Source: Candidatus Woesearchaeota archaeon
Lineage (GTDB): Archaea; Nanobdellota; Nanobdellia; Woesearchaeales; UBA10216
Reading direction: 5' to 3'
DNA length: 23,638 nucleotides
NCBI GenBank assembly: GCA_016180085.1
Contig: JACPBX010000002.1
Coordinates: 1-23,638, forward strand
This document shows positions 1,277 to 13,668 of this stretch, piece after piece. Within the stretch, counting starts at the first letter, position 1, and every line of letters begins with the position of its first letter. The notes under the pieces were generated by a model. It saw only the letters and a program-made list of their open reading frames with translations. It made no database searches and was not told the origin of the DNA. Position numbers and translations under genes: made by a program.

Positions 1277-1364
1277 CGCCGGAGGCGGGATTTGAACCCA
1301 CGTGACTCGGTGTGAGTCTCCTGCTCCTGAAGCAGGTGCAATAACCAGACTATGCGACTCCGGC
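1277..1364 (-). tRNA. Class II tRNA, anticodon CAG (nominally Leu) on a Ser-like body
   Basis: GCCGGAG-TC-GCAT-AGTCTGGTTA-TTGC-A-CCTGC-TT-CAG-GA-GCAGG, long variable arm GACTC/GAGTC, GTGGG-TTCAAAT-CCCGC, CTCCGGC, G73. Confidence 0.9.
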
Positions 1365-1559
1365 ATTGCACAAACGCCGCTACAAGTGCTTCTTTTCAGA
1401 TTCATAAGTTTTACCGTCGATTTTCAGCAAATTTTACGAGAATCACGAAAGAATTTCAATACAGGGCGTATTTTTTTCTATTTTTTCAAGATTTATTGAA
1501 AGATTTCCAAGAATATCGCAAATTCGCCAGGCAGATTTACAGAAGGCTTAGTGAGTTAG

Positions 1560-1574
1560 CGAAAGGTTTAAATA
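1560..1574 (+). promoter_or_regulatory. Putative BRE-TATA promoter with no adjacent ORF
   Basis: CGAAAGG followed by TTTAAATA; the next real ORF starts about 150 bp downstream and has its own TATA box. Confidence 0.4.
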
Positions 1575-1678
1575 AAACATAACACCTAATAGCTATAAAT
1601 CGGTGTGAGTCAGAGTTTTTCTGCAATAGCCGGGCTATGGGACCCGCGCTTTTTTATTTTAAAAATCCAACCATTAAC

Positions 1679-13539: not shown

Positions 13540-13668
13540 GCCCCTATGGTCCAACGGACAAGATGCGGCCCCGCGAATGACCTTTTTGGTAAAAAGGTCA
13601 ATCAAAAACGGCTGCTTTTATTCAGTCGTGGGTAGGCTGAGATCTGGGTTCAATTCCCAGTGGGGGCG
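13540..13668 (+). tRNA. tRNA-Arg(GCG) with a 57-nt 37/38 intron (13577..13633); unusual C33
   Basis: GCCCCTA/TGGGGGC acceptor, A20 in the D-loop (Arg determinant), CGGCC/GGCTG anticodon stem, CTGGG-TTCAATT-CCCAG T-arm, G73. BHB: CCGC pairs with GTGG, with bulges GAA and GTA. Confidence 0.75.

Follow-up and report, generated by a model that had tools for sequence, protein, structure and literature searches.

Which amino acid is carried by a transfer RNA (tRNA) whose anticodon is that of leucine and whose body resembles a serine tRNA? This question is raised by a class II tRNA gene with the anticodon CAG at positions 1277-1364 (minus strand) of the window, by which we mean the 23,638-nucleotide stretch of DNA that we analysed (contig JACPBX010000002.1 of assembly GCA_016180085.1, from a Candidatus Woesearchaeota archaeon). 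As our best reading, to which we assign a probability of roughly 45%, we propose that seryl-tRNA synthetase (SerRS) would charge this tRNA with serine, and that a cognate antisense RNA would restrain the resulting miscoding tRNA. The assembly (G000, in which the window is contig C35) is 1.0 Mb long, 83% complete, and has a G+C content of 49%. The closest named relative of its GyrB is from a Candidatus Woesearchaeota metagenome-assembled genome from Rifle groundwater (64% identity).

The gene is called tRNA-Leu(CAG) by ARAGORN and matches Rfam's RF00005 at 54.7 bits (E = 1.9e-9; the gathering score is 29). Its minimum free energy fold is a class II cloverleaf of -39.4 kcal/mol (z = -4.2, with no shuffles as good). 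The tRNA is 88 nt long, without an intron or an encoded CCA. Most tRNA genes in this genome contain introns, several of them at non-canonical positions, and the intron-less window copy stands out among them. The 7-bp acceptor stem (GCCGGAG/CUCCGGC) is followed by U8 and by a D arm (1338-1355) of the form GCAU-AGUCUGGUUA-UUGC, with U13-A14-G15 and G18G19. The anticodon stem (CCUGC/GCAGG) includes a G30-C40 pair, and the anticodon loop, UUCAGGA, contains U33, the anticodon (1327-1329), and G37. The variable arm (1302-1319) is 18 nt long, with a 5-bp stem (GACUC/GAGUC) and the loop ACACC. The T arm, GUGGG-UUCAAAU-CCCGC, has a 5-bp stem, and the discriminator base is G73 (position 1277). All of the universal tRNA features are retained: U8, A14, G18G19, U33, a 7-nt anticodon loop, GTTCAAATC, and 7/5 stems. 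These tools and the fold bear out the tRNA at these positions with the CAG anticodon, U13-A14-G15, G73, and ACACC loop that an initial annotation, made from the letters of the window, had described. The anticodon is a leucine anticodon and not one of those for serine (NGA or GCU).

To which class does the body belong? Using intron-less genes from related genomes and from metagenomes, we built covariance models with 3-5 sequences each: a Ser model from the tRNA-Ser of this order (four isoacceptors), an archaeal Leu model from the order's archaeal-type tRNA-Leu (three isoacceptors), and a bacterial Leu model from bacterial-type tRNA-Leu(CAG) (five metagenome genes). The window tRNA scored 78.7 bits with the Ser model, 52.5 bits with the archaeal Leu model, and 62.3 bits with the bacterial Leu model, so the Ser model leads by 26 and 16 bits, respectively. 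A score of 78.7 bits is at the level of the best held-out canonical tRNA-Ser (56-79 bits with the Ser model and 33-56 bits with the archaeal Leu model). The order's held-out canonical tRNA-Leu scored 37-51 bits with the Ser model and 76-96 bits with the archaeal Leu model, and the three complete tRNA-Leu of this genome scored 72-88 bits with the latter. Held-out bacterial tRNA-Leu(CAG) scored 66-71 bits with the Ser model and 101-103 bits with the bacterial Leu model. With both Leu models, the window copy falls below every true Leu tRNA.

The genes themselves tell a similar story. The canonical tRNA-Leu genes of this genome with the anticodons GAG (contig C18), UAG (C23), and CAA (C26) have GCGGGG-type acceptor stems, a UUAGU variable loop, and A73. 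The window tRNA has ACACC in place of UUAGU. In G059, a 99% complete sister genome from the same family, all five canonical tRNA-Leu genes, including the one for CAG, have A73. The canonical tRNA-Ser genes that we found (UGA, GGA, and CGA) have GCCG-type acceptor stems and G73, and their variable arms are short, with GNRA-like loops. The serine-like body that the initial annotation proposed is thus supported. Of the findings that it had named as speaking against such a body, two can be checked by computation, namely a higher Leu score and other tRNA-Leu genes with G73 and the same body; instead, both Leu models score lower, and the complete tRNA-Leu genes of this genome all have A73 and GCGGGG acceptors. 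One of the features that it relied on is less informative. The tRNA does begin with GCCGG, but this is not by itself a mark of serine: 43 ordinary tRNA-Leu(CAG) genes with A73 from metagenomes also begin with GCCG.

What is known about synthetases makes the discriminator base important. A73 is crucial for the bacterial, archaeal, and human leucyl-tRNA synthetases (LeuRS) and is the sole universal determinant for leucine; for the LeuRS of E. coli and that of H. volcanii, G73 acts as an antideterminant; and in human tRNA-Leu, changing A73 to G by itself flips acceptance to serine (PMC9976931). The strong determinants for bacterial-type and archaeal SerRS are G73 and G30-C40 (PMC9976931), and the window tRNA has both. 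Judging from its sequence, the aminoacylation signals of the window tRNA are of the tRNA-Ser type: it has G73, G30-C40, and a long variable arm, and its acceptor stem and D arm are those of the order's serine tRNAs.

The genome encodes one full-length SerRS with the N-terminal arm (C15:35276-36589; TIGR00414, 497 bits). The sole LeuRS that we found in the 83%-complete assembly is of the bacterial type (C18:18574-21309, or L030:208-2943): it matches TIGR00396 with 952 bits, which is above the cut-off, and it matches the archaeal model, TIGR00395, with 281 bits, which is below the cut-off. This LeuRS was probably acquired by horizontal transfer. Its gene is 3 kb from tRNA-Leu(GAG). Because the LeuRS is of the bacterial type, the argument from the A47c/G47d element of archaeal LeuRS, which had been part of the case for a serine body, does not apply directly, and A73 versus G73 is the element that counts. 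Among the class-II-core and class-I Pfam matches in the assembly, we found ordinary synthetases only and no special synthetase. Since SerRS does not read the anticodon and relies on G73 and the long arm, serylation of the window tRNA would be expected.

Does CUG still mean leucine in this organism? We aligned 200 non-overlapping conserved open reading frames with 293 kb of G059, which gave 61,816 columns at 49% identity. The 2008 aligned CTG codons were opposite leucine in 54% of cases and opposite serine in 2%. In the same alignment, the other leucine codons were opposite leucine in 48-60% of cases and opposite serine in 1-3%, and serine codons were opposite serine in 32-44%. The CTG columns are indistinguishable from those for CTC, CTT, and TTG. 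Also, CTG is the commonest leucine codon (35% of leucine codons, or 34 per 1000 codons) and the fourth most used codon overall. The four CTG codons of gyrB that had been singled out as encoding conserved leucines (at 2809, 2818, 4030, and 4036) are indeed in frame, within GLHHLVY and LPLKG. We reject a wholesale reassignment of CUG, as the initial annotation did.

A canonical tRNA that would read CUG is present in part. The 5' two thirds of a Leu-type tRNA(CAG), with a GCGGGGG acceptor strand and introns in the D loop and the anticodon loop, lies at C36:48659-48850. It ends at the start of the variable arm (TCCCTTAGTG) and is followed directly by an oxidoreductase-like open reading frame. We searched the whole assembly for the 3' half (the T arm and the 3' acceptor strand, ..CCCCCGCA) and found nothing. 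The tRNA gene may be split or may be a pseudogene, or a contig may be missing.

If the window tRNA is charged with serine, how would the cell tolerate it? A possible answer is encoded divergently, about 240 nt 5' of the tRNA. A mini-gene at this site repeats tRNA residues 1-28 (74% identity, with differences that are mostly C for U) and residues 47-58 (12/12) and skips the anticodon arm. It would encode an antisense small RNA of about 55-59 nt (about 1597-1655, plus strand), as predicted from the repeats. Positions 1600-1611 are complementary to variable-arm residues 47-58 (12/12), and positions 1622-1650, approximately, are complementary to residues 1-28, which form the 5' strand of the acceptor stem and the D arm; some of the pairs here are G-U, and there are a few mismatches. 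A TATA-like box (TTTAAATA, 1567-1574, plus strand) that lies about 25-30 nt 5' of the predicted start of the RNA is a putative promoter, and a run of six T (1650-1655) after the mini-gene would serve as a terminator. The tRNA is preceded by its own putative promoter, a TATA-like element (AACTTATGAAT) at 1400-1410 on the minus strand. From these signals, we infer that both strands are transcribed.

The small RNA is predicted to be unstructured on its own (z = +0.5) and to pair strongly with the window tRNA. The predicted duplex has an energy of about -65.5 to -67 kcal/mol, and the duplex with any other tRNA is at -43 kcal/mol or weaker. The two RNAs fold together at -82.4 kcal/mol, as compared to -52.3 kcal/mol apart. 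In the joint fold, the small RNA pairs with the 5' strand of the acceptor stem, the D arm, and the variable arm, and the hairpins of the anticodon and T arms survive. We considered two other explanations for the mini-gene. On reading 1597-1655, we found no box motifs of a C/D-box or H/ACA guide RNA. A duplication of an integrase's att site would not explain the partial copy either: it is not a contiguous segment of the tRNA, as it combines the acceptor stem and D arm with the variable arm and lacks the anticodon arm, and it recurs in all seven of the genome's modules (described below) with a sequence specific to its partner.

The window tRNA belongs to a family. A scan of this genome for Ser-type 5' halves, which gives a lower bound, yielded at least seven long-arm tRNAs that have G73 and a non-serine anticodon. 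Five have the anticodon CAG (the window copy, C22:56668, C14:10855, C14:62616, and C7:2164), one has GAA (C23:14180), and one has CCU (C41:16297). The relatives in G059 have UAA, UAU, and GAA, and G022, from another family of the order, has a member with CAA. In another sister genome, G167, we found only canonical Ser and Leu tRNAs among the long-arm matches to the Ser model that we read, which does not prove that the family is absent. So, in this small census of relatives, the copy number varies from seven in G000 to at least three in G059, one in G022, and none found in G167. Every member that we examined has G73, whatever its anticodon. Because the same body is found with GAA, CCU, UAU, UAA, and CAA anticodons, the family cannot be simply tRNA-Leu. 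The stems are paired in all seven copies despite many differences, with compensatory changes between paralogs. The copy on C7 is degenerate, as both G18G19 and the T-loop TTC are gone.

Five of the seven members in this genome have an intron in the T loop, after TTCAAA, and the copies in the window and on C22 do not. Because of this intron, ARAGORN mis-drew or missed those members. In three of them, the introns are homologous, with a length of about 23 nt and a conserved CCTAGGC core (L250:381-492, from C23; L251:87-198, from C41; and L252:365-476, from C7). In the other intron-bearing members, the introns at this position are unrelated.

A companion mini-gene is present in all seven modules of this genome and also in the modules of G059 and in one module from a metagenome. 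In the modules that we read by eye, the companion has a TATA-like box upstream, at a distance of about 25-30 nt, and is followed by a T-run, which fits antisense transcription; an equivalent A/T box is found at the matching distance in other modules. TATA-like motifs related to that of the window tRNA (CTTATGAA, CATAAGAA, and CATATGAA) are found 5' of the paralogous tRNAs. The matrix of predicted duplexes is strongly diagonal: each companion with its own tRNA reaches -48 to -67 kcal/mol, as against -16 to -50 kcal/mol with other family members or with canonical Ser or Leu tRNAs. The modules on C23 of G000 (GAA) and on C15 of G059 (UAU) occupy the same locus between orthologous genes and have identical anticodon stems and different anticodons. 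Between these orthologous modules, the variable arm and the companion have changed together.

In a scan of metagenomes, we found 45 tRNA(CAG) genes of the GCCG type. The 43 genes with A73 have neither a companion nor a T-loop intron. The other two have G73, and both have the family's T-loop intron; one of them has a companion at -214. The pattern for GCCG-type tRNA(CAG) had no match in viral contigs, which is weak evidence because the pattern is narrow. A DNA search of 200 genomes of the order gave mostly T-arm matches to ordinary tRNAs and was of no use for a census.

The anticodons of the family can be compared with codon usage in two genomes. In G000, the anticodons are CAG, CCU, and GAA, and the corresponding usages per 1000 codons are 34 for CTG, 31.5 for AGG, and 43 for TTC plus TTT. 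In G059, whose G+C content is 37%, the anticodons are UAU, UAA, and GAA, and the usages are 35 for ATA, 19 for TTA, and 45 for TTT plus TTC; TTA is just the second commonest leucine codon there. This comparison of two genomes suggests that the family's anticodons track the host's abundant codons across a 12-point difference in G+C content. The match to abundant codons suggests selection through decoding.

Each copy of the family sits in a unit of about 400 bp. In the window, the unit (1260-1667, no strand assigned) consists of the tRNA, a spacer, and the antisense mini-gene, and it is bordered on one side by the stop codon of a peroxiredoxin-like gene (717-1259) and on the other by the promoter of a gene from the diphthamide-synthase family (PF01902; 1722-2462). 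In G059 and G167, these two flanking genes are directly adjacent, and the roughly 408 bp of 1260-1667 are missing. The sites of three modules (those of the window, C14:10855, and C7) are empty in G059. As judged by these empty sites, the window's module is a recent insertion. We saw no target-site duplication or terminal repeats. The initial annotation is partly supported: the serine-like body and the meaning of CUG hold, and what it missed is that the tRNA is no isolated case, as it has a multi-copy family, an inserted module, and a matched antisense gene.

We found no open reading frame that is conserved across the modules. A 76-aa frame in the window's module (1352-1582, plus strand) might have suggested a small protein encoded in the spacer, but it is open in this module only, and the other modules have stops in all frames. 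The spacer (1386-1566, no strand assigned) contains a repeated motif, AGATTT..GAAAG (1489-1505 and 1533-1549), and resembles the spacers of other modules at the DNA level. Similar motifs (GGAAGATTTTTGGAAAAA and its kin) recur in the other spacers without a conserved reading frame. The repeated motif may be a binding site for a regulator. The promoter region of the diphthamide-synthase-family gene contains a perfect tandem duplication (two copies of TTTATAAAACAG, 1679-1702) that lies just beyond the insertion; G059 has a single copy of TTTATAAG at this site.

Given these observations, we propose the following mechanism. SerRS, which is blind to the anticodon, would charge the window tRNA with serine. 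If left free, this tRNA would insert serine at leucine CUG codons; because CUG is the commonest leucine codon and is read as leucine, this would strike the whole proteome and would be damaging. The cognate antisense RNA would bind the tRNA or its precursor and would unzip the acceptor stem, the D arm, and the principal handle for SerRS, the variable arm. A tRNA bound in this way would be neither charged nor used. Because the sequence of the variable arm is private to the tRNA, the antisense RNA could spare the essential canonical tRNA-Ser. The pair would act like a poison and an antidote that are both made of RNA, or like a unit for switchable mistranslation, and would be gained or lost between close relatives. 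As for the harm, yeast tRNA-Ser variants with the anticodons GAA or GAU, which correspond to hydrophobic residues, are among the most toxic (PMC6125640).

How well does serine charging stand up against the alternatives? We infer serylation from rules established in other organisms, and several features of the locus weigh against it. The variable arm of the window tRNA (18 nt with a 5-bp stem) is longer than those of the order's canonical tRNA-Ser (15 nt with a 3-4-bp stem and a GNRA-like loop), so acceptance by SerRS is not guaranteed. Also, the similarity between companion and tRNA could be partly upheld by gene conversion between direct repeats. Other features fit with the family providing extra working tRNA-Leu(CAG): a bacterial-type LeuRS that tolerates G73 would charge the many CAG copies, these would serve the top leucine codon, and the antisense RNAs would tune the supply. 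The sole LeuRS that we found is of the bacterial type; CUG, the top leucine codon, is decoded as leucine; the window copy has G37, which is a Leu-type purine; and nine of the 13 known members have leucine anticodons. The copies on C22 and C14 (C14a and C14b) resemble bacterial tRNA-Leu(CAG), as they score higher with the bacterial Leu model (84, 70, and 70 bits) than with the Ser model (73, 62, and 56 bits), and it is conceivable that the family originated from leucine tRNAs or is charged with leucine. Since the assembly lacks the 3' part of the canonical tRNA-Leu(CAG) on C36, decoding of CUG might depend on the CAG copies with G73. However, E. coli-type and archaeal LeuRS have G73 as an antideterminant, the one universal determinant for leucine is A73 (PMC9976931), and the fact that every complete canonical Leu tRNA in this genome and in G059 keeps A73 indicates that the enzyme still selects for it. 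The window copy's low scores with both Leu models and the presence of GAA, CCU, and UAU anticodons on the same body also argue against a leucine tRNA. Furthermore, one would not expect to find a housekeeping tRNA within insertions that carry private antisense genes, or to see it missing from sister genomes that have the complete canonical set. We consider leucine charging unlikely, and the context favours a controlled serine-miscoding tRNA over a LeuRS with altered specificity.

Alternatively, the tRNA might never be aminoacylated or might never reach the ribosome. The pair would then be a selfish or regulatory element built on a tRNA-shaped RNA and might, for instance, be a mobile miniature element, act as a decoy for enzymes that target tRNAs, or serve as a substrate for processing. 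This would fit with the module being an insertion whose copy number varies among relatives, with variable arms that are unlike either canonical class, and with the loss of G18G19 and of the T-loop TTC from the C7 copy. Many bacterial allo-tRNA(UAU) are also thought to be unused in translation and are tied to transposable elements or to toxin-antitoxin systems (PMC5389517). Yet the window copy retains every universal tRNA feature, the stems have been kept paired through many compensatory differences among the paralogs, CAG is kept in five diverged copies, and the anticodons match abundant codons in two genomes (CTG and AGG in G000; ATA and TTT in G059). To us, a role outside translation seems improbable. 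Finally, CUG could be reassigned or be stochastically dual-coded as leucine and serine, as in Candida or Ascoidea. A Ser-type tRNA(CAG) does co-exist with leucine decoding, and low-level ambiguity would be compatible with the sequence data. But reassignment is refuted by the CTG columns, which look like those of CTC, CTT, and TTG; CTG is not avoided; it encodes conserved leucines of GyrB; and sister genomes lack the tRNA gene at this site. Hence, this idea as a whole is very improbable.

Returning to serine charging and antisense control, the precursor of the window tRNA has one further feature. An 18-nt arm of the 5' leader (1368-1385, no strand assigned) could pair with the 3' trailer (1260-1277), with 78% complementarity. 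The predicted duplex has an energy of -18 kcal/mol (z = -4.9), and the pairing would lengthen the acceptor helix in the precursor. This helix is not a trait of the family, as it is strong in the window copy alone, weaker in C14a and C7, and not seen in the other four.

Elsewhere in the window, positions 13540-13668 (plus strand) encode an intron-containing tRNA whose acceptor stem is GCCCCTA and whose discriminator is G73. The calls that ARAGORN makes for it are wrong: Ser(gct) without introns and Pro(ggg) with introns. Since it scores just 19 bits with the Ser model, it is not a Ser-type tRNA. Many tRNA introns of this genome share a hairpin and an A-rich tail (GACCCTTTT..AAAAGGGTCAATCCAAAAACG), for instance at C3:6346-6465, C3:26764-26875, and C18:15197-15338.

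Natural tRNAs whose identity and anticodon disagree are rare: those of the CTG-clade yeasts, the allo-tRNAs, the nev-tRNAs, and tRNA-ProX are examples. The window tRNA belongs to none of these groups and resembles them in function. Like the tRNA-Ser(CAG) of CTG-clade yeasts and Ascoidea (PMC6041473; Santos et al. as cited in PMC6125640), it is a class II tRNA with serine identity, the anticodon CAG, and G37, and the yeast SerRS ignores the anticodon, as we propose here. In those yeasts, CUG has acquired another meaning or is stochastically decoded in two ways, and it is a rare codon that is kept out of conserved leucine sites, whereas in our archaeon it is the commonest leucine codon and means leucine. 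Unlike the yeast tRNA, the window tRNA is multi-copy, lies in insertions, has an antisense partner, and is found in an archaeon.

The bacterial allo-tRNAs (Mukai et al. 2017, PMC5389517; reviewed in PMC7609411) also combine SerRS identity elements with non-serine anticodons, including those for leucine, isoleucine, arginine, and phenylalanine, which is a likeness in function and not a sign of membership. When expressed in E. coli, they insert serine at leucine codons; they are patchily distributed and are often near toxin-antitoxin or transposon genes (PMC5389517; PMC7609411). However, allo-tRNAs are bacterial and have a 12-bp acceptor branch with 8/4 or 9/3 acceptor and T stems, while the window tRNA is archaeal and has 7/5. 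The word "antisense" is absent from the allo-tRNA paper (PMC5389517), which mentions no cognate antisense RNA gene. The nematode nev-tRNAs (Hamashima et al. 2012, PMC3333845) are class II tRNAs whose anticodons (for glycine or isoleucine) are at odds with their charging identity (leucine), and they are expressed and decode in vitro. The nev-tRNAs differ in having leucine identity instead of serine identity, in being eukaryotic, in having no known antisense partner, and in tending to match rare codons, whereas the window's family matches abundant codons (PMC3333845). The tRNA-ProX/ProRSx pair of Streptomyces (PMC11415595) is a dedicated, encoded mistranslation device with one identity and another anticodon, similar to what we propose. 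But tRNA-ProX is a bacterial class I tRNA that is paired with a special synthetase, and the window tRNA is of class II and has an antisense RNA as its partner. Our full-text literature searches turned up no archaeal case.

A different comparison is with toxin-antitoxin systems. In types I and III, a harmful product is neutralised by a small RNA that is encoded alongside, and in type I, this is a divergent or overlapping antisense RNA. To our knowledge, the toxin in every described type is a protein or its mRNA. In type I, the antisense RNA binds the mRNA of the toxic protein; here, the complementarity is to the tRNA itself. In our proposal, the presumed toxin would be a tRNA, the antidote would pair with structural arms of the mature RNA, and the module encodes no protein. 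An all-RNA toxin-antitoxin system of this kind would be categorically new. A bolder version of this idea can be stated, and we hold it to be possible if somewhat doubtful. The module would be an all-RNA poison and antidote, in which a serine-charged tRNA would act against the host's most abundant hydrophobic or arginine codons and a private antisense RNA would be the antidote by unfolding the acceptor stem, the D arm, and the variable arm. The 400-bp, protein-free unit would be spreading in DPANN archaea, with its anticodon retuned to the codon usage of each host.

These genes also carry a warning for annotation: naming tRNAs by their anticodons (as in "tRNA-Leu") hides such genes, and the intron-rich tRNA sets of DPANN archaea need isotype-aware calling. 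If the window tRNA is charged with leucine instead, then this organism's LeuRS would have given up the otherwise universal A73 rule. If our reading is correct, this would be the first tRNA in Archaea with a mismatch between identity and anticodon. It also combines several properties: the canonical 7/5 shape, a match to the host's commonest codons, multiple copies, recent insertion, and a built-in candidate regulator in the form of a tRNA-specific antisense RNA. This combination makes it testable whether deliberate mistranslation is used as a regulated weapon, as a means of addiction, or as a switch under stress.

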